A stretch of DNA of 64,000 nt, from positions 105,167 through 169,166 of the forward strand of contig JAHPZI010000021.1 in the NCBI GenBank assembly GCA_019058295.1, given 5' to 3'. This stretch comes from Promethearchaeota archaeon (GTDB taxonomy: Archaea > Asgardarchaeota > Lokiarchaeia > Sigyniarchaeales > SOKP01). Positions 22,366 through 60,057 of this stretch are shown piece after piece. A program made the position numbers and the translations under genes. How positions within the stretch are numbered: position 1 is the stretch's first letter; each line of letters begins with the position of its first letter. A model generated the notes under the pieces. It saw only the letters and a program-made list of their open reading frames with translations. It ran no database searches and was not told the DNA's origin.

Positions 22366-23802
22366 TTATGATTCAAATAACTCTTTTATTTTTATTGCTG
22401 TTTTATTAAAGAAATTTAATCTTTTAAGTTCGATATCTGTATCAGGTGTGATATATTTTTGTCTTAAGAAATTGATCTTTTCTGTTAAATTATCAAATAT
22501 CCAAGAAATTCTTTTTCCTTGACCAAATTCGTAAAAATCTTCTTTTACACTTTTCATAATTTTATTAATCGTCTTTTTATCCATTTTTTGTTTGTCTTTT
22601 GGCACAAAAGGCGTTGTTCCATCAAAATAAGTTAAAAGTATAAAATTTCTTTCATAATTATTTATATTAATATTTTTAACTAAAAATTCACCATTAGCAG
22701 AGGTCAATTTAAGGAAGTCTAGTGCTTGTAAGTGTAAGCTTTCAATGGTTCTTAGCGCAATTGTGCAAATCAGTGAGAACATTGCCCCTATTGCCATGGA
22801 ATCGAGCTCAATCTCTGTATATTCTGATATCATCATCCCTTTATTATCGATTAAAAAACATGAATGAAACGCCCCATTATCAGATAATTCTTGTAAGATT
22901 TCCTGAAGAATTCCTGCTTTTCCTTTTTTCTGCTCCTCTTTTTCTTTAATTTTGTCTTGATCCTCTATTAACTCAGAATAAACGTTTATATTCTTTTGAT
23001 AGGCAGTTTTTTCTAATTCAGCTTTTCCAATTTCAAATTCTAACTTTTCCTTATCGAATTCAATTTTATTCTTCTCAAAATCATATTTATTTTTTTCTAA
23101 CATCAATTGAATTTTTCTAATTTGCTTCTCTCTTTCTTCGAGATCAATTTTTTTTTGTTCTAATTGCTTATTTATTTCTATAAAATGTTCTCTAGCCTCC
23201 TTTATTTTGTCACTTCGGCCTTTAAAATCAATCTTAACATCTTCTAATTCTTTATTTTTTTGCTCAAATTCTTTTATTGATGTTTCAAATTCAATTCTTT
23301 TTTCTATTAATTCTTGGTTTCTATCTTCATATCTCTGTATTGATTCTTCTAATTTATTATATCTATTATTATAATCGTCGATTTTCTCATTTAATTCTTT
23401 TAATTTGTTTTCGTAAAAGGTTTTTAGATTTTCTTCCTCTTTGGTTAAGCTAATTTCTTTTGTTTCTAATTTTTTTTTATTTGTTTTAGAGTTTTTTGTT
23501 TCTAATTTTTTTTTATTTGTTTTAGAGTCTTTTGTTTCCAATTTTTTTTTATTTGCTTTAGAGTGTTCTGTTTTTACTTTATTAGTTTCTGATGAGATTA
23601 GATTACTACTTACTTTTAGGGTTTCATCTTCTATATTTTCCTTTATAATATCTGTATAAACCTCATCAATAACTTTTTTTACATCAGCATTAATATTTTC
23701 ATCTTTAAGAAATTCTTCTTTTGTTTTAGATATATGTGATACATCATCCGTGAGACTTTTCTCATGGGCATTAATTTGTTTTTCATTATCTTTAATTGGC
23801 AT
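22366..23802 (-). CDS. Long coiled-coil protein with a C-terminal roadblock/LC7 domain
   Basis: About 300 aa of K/E-rich heptad-like sequence (KLKELNEKIDDYNNRYNKLEES...). The C-terminus GAFHSCFLIDNKGMMISEY...DSMAIGAMFSLI...NGEFLVKNI...FILLTYF fits the roadblock pattern. Confidence 0.7.
   Translation of the reverse strand: MPIKDNEKQINAHEKSLTDDVSHISKTKEEFLKDENINADVKKVIDEVYTDIIKENIEDETLKVSSNLISSETNKVKTEHSKANKKKLETKDSKTNKKKLETKNSKTNKKKLETKEISLTKEEENLKTFYENKLKELNEKIDDYNNRYNKLEESIQRYEDRNQELIEKRIEFETSIKEFEQKNKELEDVKIDFKGRSDKIKEAREHFIEINKQLEQKKIDLEEREKQIRKIQLMLEKNKYDFEKNKIEFDKEKLEFEIGKAELEKTAYQKNINVYSELIEDQDKIKEKEEQKKGKAGILQEILQELSDNGAFHSCFLIDNKGMMISEYTEIELDSMAIGAMFSLICTIALRTIESLHLQALDFLKLTSANGEFLVKNININNYERNFILLTYFDGTTPFVPKDKQKMDKKTINKIMKSVKEDFYEFGQGKRISWIFDNLTEKINFLRQKYITPDTDIELKRLNFFNKTAIKIKELFES
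23458..23565. repeat. 3 x 36-bp tandem repeat inside the coiled-coil gene (encodes SK(A/T)NKKKLETK(D/N/E) x3)
   Basis: Copies start at 23458, 23494 and 23530. They are near-identical and in frame (12 aa per unit). Confidence 0.9.
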
Positions 23803-23854
23803 TTTTAATCAAAAATTTGATATGTTATTAATTATCCAGTATATTACTTTGACC

Positions 23855-24307
23855 TCATAATAGTGAGCCTAAACTTTCAAAGAGCTCCTCTTTAGAAGTT
23901 TCTTCTTTGAAATAGTTTTTAATCTCATCAATAATTTTATTTGTTTCAAATTGAATTAATCCAAAATTAATCTTTTTAGAAAATATTACTTGAATAAGTA
24001 CGTTTGAAAATACTCTTGTTATTAATATTGAAAAATCTGCATCAAGGCTTTTGTCCATACCGGCATCAATCTTTATTTGTTCGAGCATTTTATTTTTATT
24101 GATTATTTCTATACCTCTTTCTGCCATTGATAAAATACTTGCTGAGATCGCAGCAAAATTAATATTCATTTCCTCATATTGGTCGTTTTGTTCACTATTT
24201 GAAGCTATTACTAAACCATCTTCAGTAATTAAAGTTGAACTTTTAACGCCAGTATTTAAAATAAAATCATCTAAAAGATTTATTAATTTAATTCTAATAT
24301 CTGACAT
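23855..24307 (-). CDS. Roadblock/LC7-domain protein (150 aa; paralog of 26307-26759)
   Basis: VKSSTLITEDGLVIAS...NFAAISASILSMAERG...FSILITRV...IQVIFS fits alpha-beta-beta-alpha-beta-beta-beta. It aligns end to end with the 26307 product. Confidence 0.7.
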   Translation of the reverse strand: MSDIRIKLINLLDDFILNTGVKSSTLITEDGLVIASNSEQNDQYEEMNINFAAISASILSMAERGIEIINKNKMLEQIKIDAGMDKSLDADFSILITRVFSNVLIQVIFSKKINFGLIQFETNKIIDEIKNYFKEETSKEELFESLGSLL

Positions 24308-24390
24308 ATAACATCCTGTTTTTCTTTGTCAATATTTTACTTTTTTAGCTTTAATTGTAAATAAAAAAAAAAAAATAATAATTAAATTCT

Positions 24391-24756
24391 TTAACCTAAA
24401 ACCATTTTGATTTTATCCAGAGCAGCATTTATCTCGAAATCTATTAGTCCTATTTTGGCATCTGAGGGAGCTAATGCAATTAGAGCTGCTTGCGCTAATT
24501 GATGGACAACAATAAGATTATCCTTACCACTAATTACATGTGAACTCACTTTACCTGATTTTAAAGTATCCGCAACCCTTGACCCAACTGATGTTAAAGC
24601 TGCAGTCATGGCAGCTATTCCACGCTCATCCATATCTTTATGTAAAGCGCTTGCCATCATCTGACCTTTCAAAGATATAACTGCACTGTTTGATACTTCG
24701 GAATTCTTTTCTAAATCATATAATATGTCTTTAATTTTTTCTGATCGAGCACTCAT
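24391..24756 (-). CDS. Roadblock/LC7 (MglB-like) protein
   Basis: 121 aa. VSNSAVISLKGQMMASAL...GIAAMTAALTSVGSRVADTL...SHVISGKDNLIVVHQL...ALIALA is the classic MglB/COG2018-like pattern. Confidence 0.8.
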   Translation of the reverse strand: MSARSEKIKDILYDLEKNSEVSNSAVISLKGQMMASALHKDMDERGIAAMTAALTSVGSRVADTLKSGKVSSHVISGKDNLIVVHQLAQAALIALAPSDAKIGLIDFEINAALDKIKMVLG

Positions 24757-24774
24757 TTATATTTACCTCTTTTT

Positions 24775-24900
24775 TTATTTTTTATCATAAAATTCACAAG
24801 TGTCCTTTTCCTTCGCTGTAACAAAAATTTTCTTTTTCTCACACCAGACTAATCCATCGGAATTTTCATCTCCTGCAAATTTACAATCACTTTTTGCCAC
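24775..24900 (-). CDS. Unlisted 41-aa Cys-containing small protein within the roadblock operon
   Basis: A GTG at 24900 lies 6 nt after the upstream TGA and is preceded by GAGGGGTGA. The product is MAKSDCKFAGDENSDGLVWCEKKKIFVTAKEKDTCEFYDKK with a TAA at 24777-24775. It is too short for the track. Confidence 0.35.
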   Translation of the reverse strand: MAKSDCKFAGDENSDGLVWCEKKKIFVTAKEKDTCEFYDKK

Positions 24901-24906
24901 TTTAAC

Positions 24907-25383
24907 TCACCCCTCTAAATTTATCGTGAAAATTGTTGTATTTTCTTCTGGTTTCCACTCAGCTTTTTCAACTGATCCTGTTTTTCCGGTATTTTTTTCA
25001 ATAGCACCATATAAAATAGCTACCATTGGACAGGGAGGAATATAATTGATATCATTGCCTCTAAGAACTTTTGTAATTGGTGCTAAAACACATTCTCCAA
25101 GATCAAGAACGACTTTACTATCACTAACCTCAATAATGTTTGCTCTTTGACAAAAGCCAACTTCTTTAATCTTTTTAGTAAAATCTTCTGTAATAGATTT
25201 AACATCTGATCCTCCGACCTCTAATCCGACATCCTTCATTAAACCTTTAACACCATCTGAATGAAACATCTCTGCCATTTCATTTTGAATCAGTGGAATA
25301 TTTAATCCCATTTTTAATAAGGAATTCACTGCTACACCAAAACTAATGTTTGTAAATGTCAATAAATCTTTAAATTCTGTCAT
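24907..25383 (-). CDS. V4R-like (COG1719-type) small-molecule-binding domain protein
   Basis: Conserved Cys/Gly spacing (GFCQRANI...LGECVLAP...PPCPMVAILYGAIEKNTG). Its position next to roadblock and MglA-like genes matches known archaeal neighbourhoods. The assignment comes from pattern only. Confidence 0.5.
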   Translation of the reverse strand: MTEFKDLLTFTNISFGVAVNSLLKMGLNIPLIQNEMAEMFHSDGVKGLMKDVGLEVGGSDVKSITEDFTKKIKEVGFCQRANIIEVSDSKVVLDLGECVLAPITKVLRGNDINYIPPCPMVAILYGAIEKNTGKTGSVEKAEWKPEENTTIFTINLEG

Positions 25384-25475
25384 ACTTTTTCATCTCTTTT
25401 TTTTTTTTATTATTATTTTTTTTAAAGAAAACTATTTTTTTAGTAGATTTTTTTATGAAAAGTAAATGTTATAAG

Positions 25476-25546
25476 TTATATTTAAATCTTTTTATAAAGA
25501 AAGTTTTTGTCACTTTGTGGTTCCATATAAAAAGATTTAAATATAA
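25476..25546. promoter_or_regulatory. Perfect 21-bp inverted repeat (TTATATTTAAATCTTTTTATA / TATAAAAAGATTTAAATATAA) with a 29-nt spacer in the divergent control region
   Basis: The arms at 25476-25496 and 25526-25546 are exact reverse complements. Each arm contains TATA-box-like TTTAAATA. The repeat lies between the divergent operon starts at 25383 (-) and about 25664-25679 (+). Confidence 0.6.
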
Positions 25547-25678
25547 GAAGAAAATTATATTTATGTCAGAAAAAATTATATAGAAAATGATATTTTTTTA
25601 TATTTTATAAAAAGGTATCCATTTTTTAGAAAATTATGAAGAAAAAATGAGGAGAGTTTAAAAATTAGTGAAAAAAGT

Positions 25679-26305
25679 ATAAAAATTTTCGTGACTGGAT
25701 TTTTTAATTCGGGAAAAAGTACTTTAGTACATACGATTGACGACAAAGCTATCCATGTAGAAAAGGAATTAAGCAAAACATTTAATGAAGAAAAAACAAC
25801 AACTACTACTGGTTTTGATTTGGGAAGACTAGTTTGGGCTCGTCCAAACTTAAATAACGAAACTGAAGGGGTAATTATGAGTAAGACAGAGTATTTAAGA
25901 GATAAAGATGAATATTTGGGATGGCATATAAAATATGTCGAGTTAAAAGGCAGTCCTGGCCAAATGCAATTTTCTACTGTCCGTAAAATTCTAGCAAAGG
26001 GAAGCGACGGTGTGATCTTTTTAATTGATGGATGTGATTTAGCGAATATTGGCAATGCGTTAGTCGTTTTGGAAGAAATCAAAGCAGTTCTAGGTTCAAA
26101 TATACCAATGCGAATAATTGCTAATAAATCTGATAGGGATGACTTTCATGGATGTGAGGTTATTACAAGTATGATTGGTGAAACAGTATATGTGGGTTCT
26201 GGTAAATATAATGTAGGTATAAAAGATGCAATTATTGAAGTACTTAAGACAATTTTATATGGTTTAGACCAAAATAAAATTTCAAAAGAGAGTGTGGTAG
26301 CTTAA
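25679..26305 (+). CDS. MglA-like small GTPase (COG2229 type); the start lies upstream of track GTG 25691 (ATA 25679 or ATT 25664)
   Basis: G1 is GFFNSGKST. G3 is GSPGQ followed by RKILAKGSDGVIFLIDG, compare MglA TVPGQ...RKLILKGVDGVVFVADS. G4 is NKSD. The beta1 strand (IKIFVTG) is encoded before the first canonical start. The frame opens after TGA 25637-25639. Confidence 0.8.
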   Translation: MKIFVTGFFNSGKSTLVHTIDDKAIHVEKELSKTFNEEKTTTTTGFDLGRLVWARPNLNNETEGVIMSKTEYLRDKDEYLGWHIKYVELKGSPGQMQFSTVRKILAKGSDGVIFLIDGCDLANIGNALVVLEEIKAVLGSNIPMRIIANKSDRDDFHGCEVITSMIGETVYVGSGKYNVGIKDAIIEVLKTILYGLDQNKISKESVVA

Positions 26306-26306
26306 A

Positions 26307-26759
26307 ATGGCTAACTTAAAAGAAAAACAAATTGTACAGATTCTGAAAGATTTTAGAGGAAGGACAAACATTCTATGTTCTATTTTACTCAATGAAGATG
26401 GTTTGATTATTGCATTAGATCAAGCTCAAATGAACGAAGATGATGAGTATCATTTATCTTTCAGTGCAATTTGCTCTGGTATTGTTGCATTAGCAGAAAA
26501 TGGTATTGAAACGATAAAAGAGGAAAATAATGTTAAAAAAATATCAATTCAAGCGGGAGAACAATTAGATAAGGAGGGATTTACAATTATTCTTCAATCG
26601 GTCACAAAAAATATTAAACTATCGATAATGTTTCCAACGTACTTGAATTTCGGTGTAATTCTTTTTGAATTAAATCAAACAATTCAAAGATTATCGGAGT
26701 ATTTTTCAATTCCTGAACAAATCAAAAATCTCGATGGTGTCAGTACATTAATGCAATAA
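26307..26759 (+). CDS. Roadblock/LC7-domain protein (150 aa; paralog of 23855-24307)
   Basis: The start is coupled to the GTPase stop (TAAAATG, 26303-26309). ILCSILLNEDGLIIAL...SFSAICSGIVALAENG...FTIILQSV...LSIMF fits the roadblock pattern. Confidence 0.7.
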   Translation: MANLKEKQIVQILKDFRGRTNILCSILLNEDGLIIALDQAQMNEDDEYHLSFSAICSGIVALAENGIETIKEENNVKKISIQAGEQLDKEGFTIILQSVTKNIKLSIMFPTYLNFGVILFELNQTIQRLSEYFSIPEQIKNLDGVSTLMQ

Positions 26760-26895
26760 ATTAAAAGATTTATCACTTTAAAAAAAAGTTATTTGTAAAA
26801 TTAAGGATTACAAACCAAAAGCAAATGTCTCAAGTTCAATTTATAATTGAAAATTATGAAAAAGATTTTATGAAACTCAGTAGAGAGGTTTTCTC

Positions 26896-39789: not shown

Positions 39790-40794
39790 TTAAGATTTTA
39801 TGAATGAGTTGATTATCTTACTGTGATTATAACTACTTCCTATCTTATTTAATGAGGCTCCATTTAGCTGCTGATAAGTTATATTATTTATTTTCATTAA
39901 CTCATTAATCCTTTTTCTTAAAGTACCTTCAGTAATTAGAGCAGCTTCAGATAAATCTTTTTGCAAACTAGTATCTCCATTTATTTTTGAAGATATATAA
40001 AGTGCTGCTGCGGTGAATCCTTTTGGATCCTTTCCTAAAAGTTTAAATTGGTTTTTTTTACTATTTTTTAATATTTTTAAAGCAACATTTCTAGTTTTCA
40101 TTGATAAGTTTAGATCCTCTTGAATTCTGTCAATATATAGTTCAGGTTCAATGTGCTTAAGTTTAATATCCAAAATGGGAAAAACATTTATATATATAAT
40201 TTTAAGACTCCTATAGAGATCTTTCTTTGATAGTTCTGAATCTTGGATAATTTCTTCCAAAAAGATTGGAAGTTCATACAACCGAATTGCACTATATACT
40301 GAAGCAGATAATAAACTTAAGATACTTCTCCCTTTAGTTAATTTTAATTTTAATGCCTGCAGATATATTTTTAAAGCTTCACTTGAAACAAAGCTAGGAA
40401 ATTTCAATTGGTTTTGTAAACGGTAGAGTATTGGTAAAGCAATATTTAGATTTCTTTCATATCCATTAATTAAATCCCTATTAATTTTAGCTAATCTTTC
40501 ATATTTCAGTTTATTTTTAGGTCTTAAATAATTTCCTAATGCATCTTTATAAGAGGTTAATAGGGTTCTGGGTCCAATTCGGCTATATACACGTTCATTT
40601 ATTTGTCGATTTTTTTTTTCTTCTTGAGTATGGGCTCTTATCCCAGAAAGATCTATTATTCTTGAAAAAGTTGTTCCACAATTTGTGCATGTATAGTATC
40701 CTTCAGTACTAATAATATTTGGAGCTTCACAGCAATTTTCATTCAATTCATCAGAAAAATCTAAATAATTCAATCTAACAGTATTAACAAGCAT
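39790..40794 (-). CDS. Divergent TFB/TFIIB-like paralog
   Basis: Zinc-ribbon-like CCEAP...CTNCG. Cyclin-repeat signatures (GRSILSLLSASVYSAIR; PKGFTAAALYISSK). The C-terminal helix GTLRKRINEL is also present. Confidence 0.75.
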   Translation of the reverse strand: MLVNTVRLNYLDFSDELNENCCEAPNIISTEGYYTCTNCGTTFSRIIDLSGIRAHTQEEKKNRQINERVYSRIGPRTLLTSYKDALGNYLRPKNKLKYERLAKINRDLINGYERNLNIALPILYRLQNQLKFPSFVSSEALKIYLQALKLKLTKGRSILSLLSASVYSAIRLYELPIFLEEIIQDSELSKKDLYRSLKIIYINVFPILDIKLKHIEPELYIDRIQEDLNLSMKTRNVALKILKNSKKNQFKLLGKDPKGFTAAALYISSKINGDTSLQKDLSEAALITEGTLRKRINELMKINNITYQQLNGASLNKIGSSYNHSKIINSFIKS

Positions 40795-40799
40795 TATTC

Positions 40800-41309
40800 T
40801 TAAAAATCACCATAAATTTTTTTAGTATTAGAAGTGCAGATACACCCTCTAAATTTTAAATCCACCGGAAGTATTAAATCATTCAAGATATCTAAAACTA
40901 TTTCCATTGATACAAAATGAATTATTGGATTAGTCCTAAAATGATAATTTACAATCATATCAAGCTCTTGGATTTTAGAACCAGCAATTAATATTTGAAA
41001 ATTTCTCAATCCACTTAATCTGAAGGCATAGATCATATGAGGACATCCTTTAATTATTTCAGTTATTTTGTTTGGATATTTTGTTTGAATATTTACATTT
41101 GCGAAATAAATATTTGACTTTTTTAAGTTTAATCCTGCTTGGTAATCTAATATACCAATATCTACTAATTTTTTGATTCTTATTCCTACAGTAGGTTGAC
41201 TTCTATGGACTTTTTCTGCAATTTCATTGTGAGTAATATTTGGATCACTCTGAATAATGGTTACTATCATTTGATCAATATCATCAATTTTCATACTTTT
41301 ATTTAGCAT
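40800..41309 (-). CDS. Lrp/AsnC-family transcriptional regulator
   Basis: The HTH DDIDQMIVTIIQSDPNITHNEIAEKVHRSQPTVGIRIKKL is followed by a RAM-like domain. Only 5 nt separate it from the downstream TFB paralog. Confidence 0.75.
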   Translation of the reverse strand: MLNKSMKIDDIDQMIVTIIQSDPNITHNEIAEKVHRSQPTVGIRIKKLVDIGILDYQAGLNLKKSNIYFANVNIQTKYPNKITEIIKGCPHMIYAFRLSGLRNFQILIAGSKIQELDMIVNYHFRTNPIIHFVSMEIVLDILNDLILPVDLKFRGCICTSNTKKIYGDF

Positions 41310-41742: not shown

Positions 41743-42078
41743 ATGAATGAATTAACTAAAGCTACATCAGAGTTTTTAAAAGCATTAAGTGATCCAATTA
41801 AATTAGAAATTATTAAATATTTAAAAAATGGTGAAAAATCAGCTAAAGACATTGAAAATATACTAAAGATTAGTCAATCATATACATCTCAACAATTAAA
41901 ACAATTAGAGAGAGCAGAGATAATTTTACATAAAAGAGAAGATGGTATAAAAATGTATTTCATTAAAAACACCAATATTTATCGTGTTATCTCAACAATT
42001 AATTCATATATAATTGAACAACATAAAAAGAAATTTCAAAAGTTAATAGATTCTGATAATATTGAGAAATTAAAATAA
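41743..42078 (+). CDS. ArsR/SmtB-family winged-helix regulator
   Basis: LKALSDPIKLEIIKYLKNGEKSAKDIENILKISQSYTSQQLKQLERAEII is a typical ArsR HTH. Confidence 0.8.
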   Translation: MNELTKATSEFLKALSDPIKLEIIKYLKNGEKSAKDIENILKISQSYTSQQLKQLERAEIILHKREDGIKMYFIKNTNIYRVISTINSYIIEQHKKKFQKLIDSDNIEKLK

Positions 42079-42115: not shown

Positions 42116-42658
42116 ATGTCGAAAAACATTAGACGCCCCTTTAGAAAAATTTTAGTGTTAGGTCTTGACAATAGTGGTAAAACATCAGTAGTGCTTAATT
42201 TTATTGGGAAAATTAATTTAACTAATTTTATCACTCCAAAAGCAACGGAAAAAGTGAATATTGTTAACTTTGAAAAGGATAATTTTAAATTTGAAATATT
42301 GGATTTTGGAGGAAAAGAAGTTTATAGAAATGAATTTCTAAAAAAATTTAATGAATATATTACAGATACAAAAGAAATTTTTTATGTAATTGATATTCAG
42401 GATTATGAAAGGTATGATCTCGCATTGAATTTTTTAAAAGAAATAATAAAAAGGTTAAACTCAATTAATTATGAGATAGAATTTACGTTTTTTCTTCATA
42501 AATTCGATAATGATATATTTAACCTCACCCCCAATATAAATGATGAGCTAATTGATGACTTAGTAGAGAAAATAAAAAATATCGTACCTTCTGACGAATT
42601 TAATGAAATTTATAAAAGTACAATATATACTGTTTTAGATAAAATTCATGTATATTAA
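42116..42658 (+). CDS. Arf/Sar-like small GTPase with substituted catalytic and guanine-specificity residues
   Basis: KILVLGLDNSGKTS compares with Arf GLDAAGKTT. G3 is LDFGGKE (Arf WDVGGQD, Gln replaced by Lys). G4 is LHKFD (NKxD, Asn replaced by His). It is collinear with Arf1 over about 170 aa. Confidence 0.75.
   Translation: MSKNIRRPFRKILVLGLDNSGKTSVVLNFIGKINLTNFITPKATEKVNIVNFEKDNFKFEILDFGGKEVYRNEFLKKFNEYITDTKEIFYVIDIQDYERYDLALNFLKEIIKRLNSINYEIEFTFFLHKFDNDIFNLTPNINDELIDDLVEKIKNIVPSDEFNEIYKSTIYTVLDKIHVY

Positions 42659-57786: not shown

Positions 57787-60057
<2,271 letters not shown>

Follow-up and report, generated by a model that had tools for sequence, protein, structure and literature searches.

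A perfect 21-bp inverted repeat between divergent GTPase and roadblock operons of a Lokiarchaeon: probably two back-to-back BRE/TATA core promoters

Between two head-to-head operons of a Lokiarchaeon lies an inverted repeat of 21 bp without a single mismatch. Does such a palindrome act as an element in its own right, or are its two arms better understood one by one, and how may they have become identical? These questions were addressed within the whole stretch of DNA analysed here (64,000 nucleotides; in the following, the window). The left arm, TTATATTTAAATCTTTTTATA, is separated by a 29-nt spacer (AAGAAAGTTTTTGTCACTTTGTGGTTCCA) from its exact reverse complement, TATAAAAAGATTTAAATATAA; the coordinates (Table 1), already given by an initial annotation made from the sequence alone, were confirmed on the sequence and by an independent script. 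The flanking genes are also as described there, with a GTPase gene followed by a Roadblock/LC7 gene on the forward strand, and the gene of a 158-aa protein followed by two Roadblock/LC7 genes on the reverse strand. The repeat is not extendable (outer flanks G/G, inner flanks A/A), and its centre, at 25511, lies 13-26 nt to the left of the intergenic midpoint, depending on the start chosen for the GTPase. Both the 21-mer and the spacer are single-copy within the window.

With 21 bp, it exceeds all other perfect inverted repeats (loop of at most 100 nt) that the script detects in the 64-kb window, the runner-up having 14 bp. For an estimate of chance, 100 sequences of 64 kb were simulated per Markov model, and the longest repeat was scored each time. 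Models trained on the window gave longest repeats of 11-18 bp, and even for a model trained solely on the very AT-rich intergenic region the maximum was 20 bp; in none of the 100 simulated sequences per model was a length of 21 bp attained. The repeat exceeds chance expectation, as the initial annotation had supposed. The notion of a palindrome that arose by chance in AT-rich intergenic DNA can refer to the extreme AT-richness of this region and to the TATA core ATTTAAAT, which is a palindrome in itself. Given the outcome of the simulations and the conservation of both arms in orthologous loci (see below), we attach practically no probability to it. A scan for tRNA genes found none, and a scan for sigma-70 promoters and terminators returned background numbers, under a model that is irrelevant for an archaeon.

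The core promoter of P. furiosus, as defined by differential RNA-seq, comprises a BRE (TFB-recognition element) at -36 to -32 (RRAAA), a TATA box at -30 to -23 (WTTTAAAW) and an initiator with a YR step at -1/+1 (PMC6640164). The TATA box is near-symmetric, and the direction is set by TFB bound to the BRE (PMC6640164). Read outward, both arms are exact matches to RRAAANWTTTAAAW, the consensus from P. furiosus, and display the layout AAAAA, one base, ATTTAAAT and four further bases; each also bears the outward-facing, TATA-box-like TTTAAATA that had been noted before (25536 on the forward, 25486 on the reverse strand). The 64-kb window holds four exact matches to RRAAANWTTTAAAW, namely the two arms, one site near a gene start, with a predicted transcription start 37 nt ahead of it, and one intragenic site. 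Both BREs are located on the inner side of their arm, and the outer flanks (ATAAGAAG and ATAACTTA) are not BRE-like. As the TATA box is nearly symmetric, direction would be set by the BRE, and with both BREs on the inner side transcription would run outward.

Based on these matches, the inverted repeat most likely consists of two separate archaeal BRE/TATA core promoters that stand back to back and serve divergent operons. TBP and TFB assembled on the inner BREs would point RNA polymerase outward, so that transcription of the Bet3-like/roadblock operon would begin at about 25456 (-) under control of the left arm, and that of the gene string from the GTPase and roadblock genes to the TFB gene at about 25565 (+) under control of the right arm. 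The likeness of the arms would stem from the proximity of both to one strong-promoter consensus, their pairing not being under selection, and the 29-nt spacer would be variable DNA that separates two pre-initiation complexes. TBP/TFB binding, the exact starts and a co-expression of the two operons are what we infer from sequence.

Table 1. Positions of the repeat, of the predicted promoter elements and of the flanking genes in the window
Feature	Position	Strand	Remarks
Left arm	25476..25496	-	Predicted core promoter of the leftward operon; reads TATAAAAAGATTTAAATATAA; exact consensus match
Left-arm boxes	BRE AAAAA 25493-25489 (-36..-32); TATA ATTTAAAT 25487-25480 (-30..-23)	-	
Spacer	25497..25525	.	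Between the two BREs, ~-40 to -68 of both promoters; length and sequence unconserved
Right arm	25526..25546	+	Predicted core promoter of the rightward GTPase operon; exact consensus match
Right-arm boxes	BRE AAAAA 25529-25533; TATA ATTTAAAT 25535-25542	+	
Predicted initiator/start, leftward operon	25456..25457 (C-1 25457, A+1 25456)	-	24 nt past the TATA box
Predicted initiator/start, GTPase operon	25564..25565 (T-1/G+1)	+	23 nt past the last TATA base
Leftward operon	22366..25383	-	ORFs, Pfam, fold; gene order same in orthologous loci
158-aa Bet3/V4R-fold protein	24907-25383	-	First leftward gene
41-aa Cys mini-protein	24775-24900	-	
Roadblock/LC7	24391-24756	-	Pfam
Roadblock-like	23855-24307	-	
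478-aa coiled-coil protein	22366-23802	-	
Rightward gene string	25664..31934	+	ORFs, Pfam
Small GTPase	25664 (probable ATT start)-26305	+	
Roadblock-like	26307-26759	+	
HEAT+GNAT	26896-28359	+	
217-aa protein	between HEAT+GNAT and PAS histidine kinase	+	
PAS histidine kinase	29159-30994	+	
TFB/TFIIB paralogue	31035-31934	+	

The start sites in Table 1 were predicted from the TATA-to-start spacing in P. furiosus (PMC6640164) together with the register of pyrimidine-purine steps in orthologues, which is a test on sequence only. The predicted leaders comprise about 99 nt up to the ATT at 25664 (+) and about 73 nt up to the ATG at 25383 (-). In a crude survey of the window, TATA-like boxes were located 50-130 nt before many start codons, so that leaders of this length do not seem unusual here. 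They would be longer than those of the Thermococcales; a start-site map of a Lokiarchaeon was not found in the literature searched. Weaker TATA-like boxes lie nearer to both start codons (e.g. TTTTATAT/TTTTATAA, 53-60 nt before the GTPase start) and could represent main or additional promoters. In several orthologues, TATA-like TTTTATAAA boxes occur 20-60 nt before the Shine-Dalgarno motif of the GTPase gene (window 25597-25616 (+) and the leaders of loci L001, L012 and L036), and the GTPase leader of L001 and L031 contains a small hairpin (TATAAAAAAAAGGTTTT / AAAACCACTTTTTTATA). These boxes and the hairpin may be second promoters or leader elements.

For comparison, ten other Lokiarchaeial loci were collected that have the 158-aa gene next to the GTPase gene and in divergent orientation; the 158-aa protein is 84-53% identical in nine of them, and the tenth is locus L052. 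One ATTTAAAT-type box faces each operon in all ten. Ungapped comparison of the 21-nt block from -39 to -19 gives a mean pairwise identity of 0.83 on the left and 0.72 on the right, against 0.34-0.58 in the flanking 21-nt windows, and nowhere in the intergenic region is conservation higher than in these blocks. When six intergenic regions were aligned with MAFFT, two invariant blocks emerged (TATTTAAA and TTTAAATAT), with gap-ridden spacer columns between them. The right arm of the orthologues shows no variation in TTTAAATA and hardly any in ATTTAAATAT, and an AT-rich block, ATATTATTA, is conserved downstream of it. A short contig, L051, has 38 nt of upstream sequence and was uninformative.

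The distance from each box to a conserved pyrimidine-purine start block is gap-free and amounts to 23-24 nt on either side. On the left this block reads as a T-rich run, then TA or CA, then TAAA..AAATCTA, at an identical ungapped distance in the window and in L001, L031 and L011, and the T-run and pyrimidine-purine step are retained in L005, L041 and L043. On the right, the ATATTATTA block is followed by a pyrimidine-purine dinucleotide, which stands at equal ungapped distance in most orthologues. From box to box, the window has 47 nt, and the other loci have 16, 55, 58, 88, 90, 102, 106, 142 and 163 nt. Aligned locally with nine others, the window spacer scored no better than shuffled sequences (p 0.19-0.85), with one exception, where it matched the second promoter pair in locus L038 in inverted orientation (p 0.014, uncorrected for nine tests); this match was not counted as evidence for an invertible spacer segment. 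An inversion by crossover within the TATA cores was also considered and does not reproduce the arm sequences of the window. Conserved boxes at a fixed distance to the start, free spacing and unrelated spacers argue for two independent core promoters and not for one composite element.

Among the readings offered by the initial annotation, a mirrored BRE/TATA promoter pair is therefore the one that agrees with the comparison, in view of the exact consensus, the boxes in ten other loci and the fixed distance to the putative start block. A single dimeric regulator site is unlikely, as a palindromic operator for a dimer calls for a fixed spacing of its half-sites and the box-to-box distance ranges from 16 to 163 nt. 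Conservation in orthologous clusters, also raised there, holds for both boxes but not for the perfect repeat and its 29-nt spacer.

The variation among the loci includes some arrangements of their own. At L052 (1205-1250, window orientation) the TATA boxes are 16 nt apart and the 21-nt promoter blocks overlap by 2 nt, so that simultaneous occupancy by two TBP/TFB complexes might be sterically limited. In L038 the divergent promoter pair is present twice (380-505 and 2339-2404), beside the GTPase gene and beside a 156-aa gene, the latter copy having a spacer of 28 nt (cf. 29 nt in the window). The two copies flank an insert of about 1.8 kb with a 335-aa ORF, transposase-like by eye, and fragments of a Cys-rich protein (CWEFKNCG / CATCDFY); the control region seems to have been duplicated in a rearrangement. 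In L037 (1741-1830), three tandem 30-nt units (catataaaatacaagaaaaaaagattcaaa) lie just downstream of a conserved left-type promoter box and precede a tiny ORF with the CATCDFY motif that heads a related operon.

Could the palindrome act as a structure, either because a transcript running through both arms folds into a 21-bp stem, or because a DNA cruciform modulates the promoters? The predicted stems are stable (RNA: -19.9 kcal/mol, z -4.2; DNA: -15.1 kcal/mol, z -5.3), and the perfect identity of the arms surpasses what a shared consensus predicts. The comparative data speak against it: there is no covariation, the arms of the relatives clash without compensation at -31 (C versus G/A) and at -19, and complementarity is no higher within a genome than between genomes. 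The loop would be absent in the case of overlapping 21-nt blocks and up to about 145 nt long in others, and, since the arms lie upstream of the predicted starts, no single transcript should hold both. No match to Rfam was obtained even at E<=1. Against the cruciform it also counts that a loop of 29 nt disfavours extrusion. We thus assign a very low probability to a structural role, and with it to the 21-bp stem, if transcribed, that had been proposed initially.

In 185,579 species-representative genomes, a set that does not include the source genome, the 21-mer occurs 18 times, once per genome, and a single time in 2.9 million viral contigs. Ten of the 18 hits fall in unrelated archaea (Thermoplasmata, Hodarchaeota, Nanoarchaeota, Woesearchaeota, Methanofastidiosia and Methanosarcina). 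Seven of these ten are followed, at 18-86 nt in the direction of the promoter, by the start of an ORF, and at one archaeal hit the ORF begins exactly at the predicted +1. Archaea make up about 5% of GTDB species; that such a minority of the collection supplies ten of 18 hits may suggest that the 21-mer is a very good archaeal promoter sequence. The concern that it is a dispersed generic repeat is not borne out, as it is single in the window and is never found twice in any of these genomes.

The same searches bear on the possibility that a miniature mobile element of the fold-back or terminal-inverted-repeat type, or a remnant thereof, sits between the operons. Its outline would be plausible, with terminal inverted repeats of 21 bp around a short and more GC-rich core and 71 bp in total. 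Yet arms and spacer are each single-copy in the window, a target-site duplication is absent (AAG on the left, GAA on the right), and ten other genomes have both arms at the orthologous sites, around spacers that are unrelated. With none of the 185,579 representative genomes holding two copies and one match in the 2.9 million viral contigs, a mobile origin appears extremely improbable. An archaeal replication origin, in which inverted, G-rich ORB elements enclose an AT-rich unwinding element and orc1/cdc6 is usually next to them, was also discarded, each arm having one G/C base; a Pfam search of about 47 ORFs of the window gave no hit to Orc1/Cdc6.

A further possibility is compatible with a core-promoter role of the arms: they may be, or overlap with, an operator at which a dedicated regulator, or a specialised TFB paralogue, switches both operons together. 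One candidate factor would be the TFB at the end of the rightward string, in a self-reinforcing loop resembling that of an alternative sigma factor; its gene follows after a gap of 40 nt, which suggests co-transcription. Conservation extends a few bases past the minimal BRE/TATA (TATRAAAAS+ATTTAAATAT), and an operator overlapping a core promoter would leave the same footprint. With up to two mismatches, the extended motif was found in this divergent region and at the heads of the related operons in L037 and L038 only, in a scan of about 170 kb of Lokiarchaeial loci and two further 20-kb loci (about 210 kb), and the ATAAAAAGA context is missing from the remaining TTTAAATA boxes of the window. 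The TFB paralogue is syntenic with the cluster in three genomes (52-54% identity), and the cluster is rich in sensor kinases. Against this stand the arms themselves, which are an exact generic consensus, and the presence of the same 21-mer at promoter-like positions in unrelated archaea. The region of the BRE-reading helix in the cluster TFB (TEVTLRSRYKE) closely resembles TEVTVRNRYKE of P. woesei TFB (1D3U); with a recognition helix this near to identity, nothing suggests an unusual BRE preference, and a special BRE for the cluster TFB was dropped as unsupported. The spacing of the half-sites is also unconserved, so that one dimer cannot bridge both arms.

On balance, a dedicated operator of this kind seems unlikely. 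In its most specific form, namely that the TFB of the rightward string reads an extended BRE (TATRAAAAS) and would thus constitute an autoregulated, sigma-factor-like switch of a conserved Lokiarchaeial module (Bet3/TRAPPC3-fold protein, several roadblock proteins, small GTPase, HEAT-GNAT protein and sensor kinases), we consider it quite improbable. If it were true, the perfect palindrome would reflect selection for equal output of the arms.

The pair of core promoters preferred here is close to known systems. With the archaeal BRE/TATA core promoter (P. furiosus, PMC6640164, and classic in vitro work) it has in common the positions of RRAAA, one base and WTTTAAAW, a pyrimidine-purine step about 23 nt past the box with an AT-rich stretch between, and a BRE on the gene-distal side; nothing essential differs, the host being a Lokiarchaeon. 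P. furiosus also has bidirectional BRE-TATA-BRE promoters, in which one TATA box is shared and the starts lie about 50 bp apart (PMC6640164). Both arrangements are divergent by way of a near-symmetric TATA box and a direction set by the BRE, but the window has a pair of TATA boxes at a distance of 47 nt, each of them with a single inner BRE, and predicted starts 109 bp apart, and the spacing of the boxes has been free in evolution here (16-163 nt). A single shared bidirectional promoter was therefore rejected.

Divergent promoter regions with a shared operator form a general class in bacteria and archaea. Like these, the intergenic region of the window serves two head-to-head operons, plausibly in a coordinated manner. 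In contrast to this class, no conserved operator was detected between the promoters of the window or bridging them, and the spacer is unconserved. Taken together, the feature would be an ordinary divergent promoter pair, an element of known kind, and this assignment is well supported in silico.

There remains the perfection of the repeat. Left and right arms are as alike across genomes (15.7/21) as within one genome (15.7/21; 14.8 if the window is left out), which indicates that complementarity itself is not selected; a general tendency of the two arms to evolve in concert was rejected on this ground. The arms form two types that are kept as such, the left with C at -31 and A at -19, the right with G/A at -31 and T/C at -19. 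Left-by-right comparisons among six other lineages give identities of 11-18/21 and none above, compared with 21/21 in the window; over all left-by-right combinations of these lineages, position -31 matches in 2 of 36 and position -19 in 0 of 36. The left arm of the window differs from that of L011 solely by a change of C to G at -31, and its right arm differs from that of L001 at -20 and -19 only. The spacer of the window is among the shortest (29 nt versus 66-68 nt in the closest relatives).

As far as these alignments can tell, the perfect 21/21 match is lineage-specific, both type-diagnostic positions (-31 and -19) having become identical here, and a shared consensus alone is insufficient to account for it. 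A local homogenisation, such as mismatch correction in a fold-back intermediate, may tentatively be put forward as the event that made the repeat perfect; two chance substitutions are the alternative. The former would resemble quasi-palindrome correction by template switching or hairpin-templated repair, which has been described in phage T4, E. coli and yeast and turns an imperfect into a perfect inverted repeat, much as the 11-18/21 of the relatives compares with the 21/21 of the window. It differs from those cases in that the support consists of the statistical oddity of two type-diagnostic positions becoming identical. Moreover, the direction of change is not the same at -31 and at -19, and a single copying event does not explain the perfection. 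Nothing suggests a conserved function for the palindrome as such; striking as it is, it appears to be a lineage-specific by-product and not a new kind of element.

The genes under this putative control deserve a closer look. The 158-aa protein has homologues in metagenome-assembled genomes that are all from Promethearchaeota/Lokiarchaeia, by which the source organism was recognised as a Lokiarchaeon, and searches of Pfam and of PDB sequences gave no hit. Its predicted fold (pLDDT 94) is closest to Bet3/TRAPPC3 of the eukaryotic TRAPP complex, including a TRAPPC3 from Thorarchaeota (7YH3), and also resembles V4R-type sensor and H-NOX domains (Foldseek E down to 1e-5, TM ~0.55-0.6). TRAPP is a Rab exchange factor in eukaryotes, and for this reason the divergent pairing of a Bet3-like protein with a GTPase/roadblock operon is notable.

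The start of the GTPase was compared over the window (25640-25700 (+)), L001 (2640-2690 (-)), L031 and L036. The ORF has no in-frame ATG, GTG or TTG before the P-loop strand; as called, from GTG 25691, the protein begins with MTGFFNSGKST and lacks the first beta strand. The in-frame upstream reading ...ISEKSIKIFVTG is conserved in L001 and L031, and the ATT at 25664, located 9 nt past a Shine-Dalgarno-like GAGGAG, aligns with the ATG of the L036 orthologue (ATG CGT GAA AAA GGA ATC...). This ATT is probably a conserved non-canonical start codon of the clade and not a sequencing error.

The 41-aa mini-ORF (24775-24900 (-)) shares 55% identity (E 4e-13) with residues 434-471 of the HEAT+GNAT protein (28195-28310 (+)), with the common motif DCK[FY]A...G[LV]WC.KK.I[FY]VT..EK..C.FY, and it is called as a gene in the orthologous loci whose sequence reaches past the 158-aa gene. 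Each of the divergent operons hence carries a Roadblock gene and a Cys module, which makes them partly paralogous. The content of the rightward string, including the TFB, is syntenic in L048 and L049, where the order of TFB and PAS kinase is reversed, and giant PAS histidine kinases and a HisKA-receiver protein flank the gene island.

A second TFB/TFIIB paralogue (39790-40794 (-)) is 32% identical to the TFB at 31035-31934 (+), has no Pfam zinc-ribbon hit, and adjoins an AsnC/Lrp-type regulator (40800-41309), an ArsR-type regulator (41743-42078) and an Arf/Rag-like GTPase (42116-42658). Elsewhere in the window, the stretch at 58-60 kb has a GC content of 48%, against 25-35% in the remainder, and coincides with the gene of a 738-aa haem peroxidase (catalase-peroxidase-like; 57841-60057 (+)), which is probably a recent horizontal acquisition.

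The locus provides a clean comparative definition of a strong promoter in an Asgard archaeon, and suggests that the BRE/TATA grammar of the Thermococcales type is unchanged in Lokiarchaeia. The promoter pair marks the likely control point of a cluster that combines a Bet3/TRAPP-like protein, roadblock proteins, a small GTPase, sensor kinases and a TFB paralogue. The association of Bet3/TRAPP-like, roadblock and GTPase genes in this cluster is of interest for the origin of the regulation of membrane traffic in eukaryotes.
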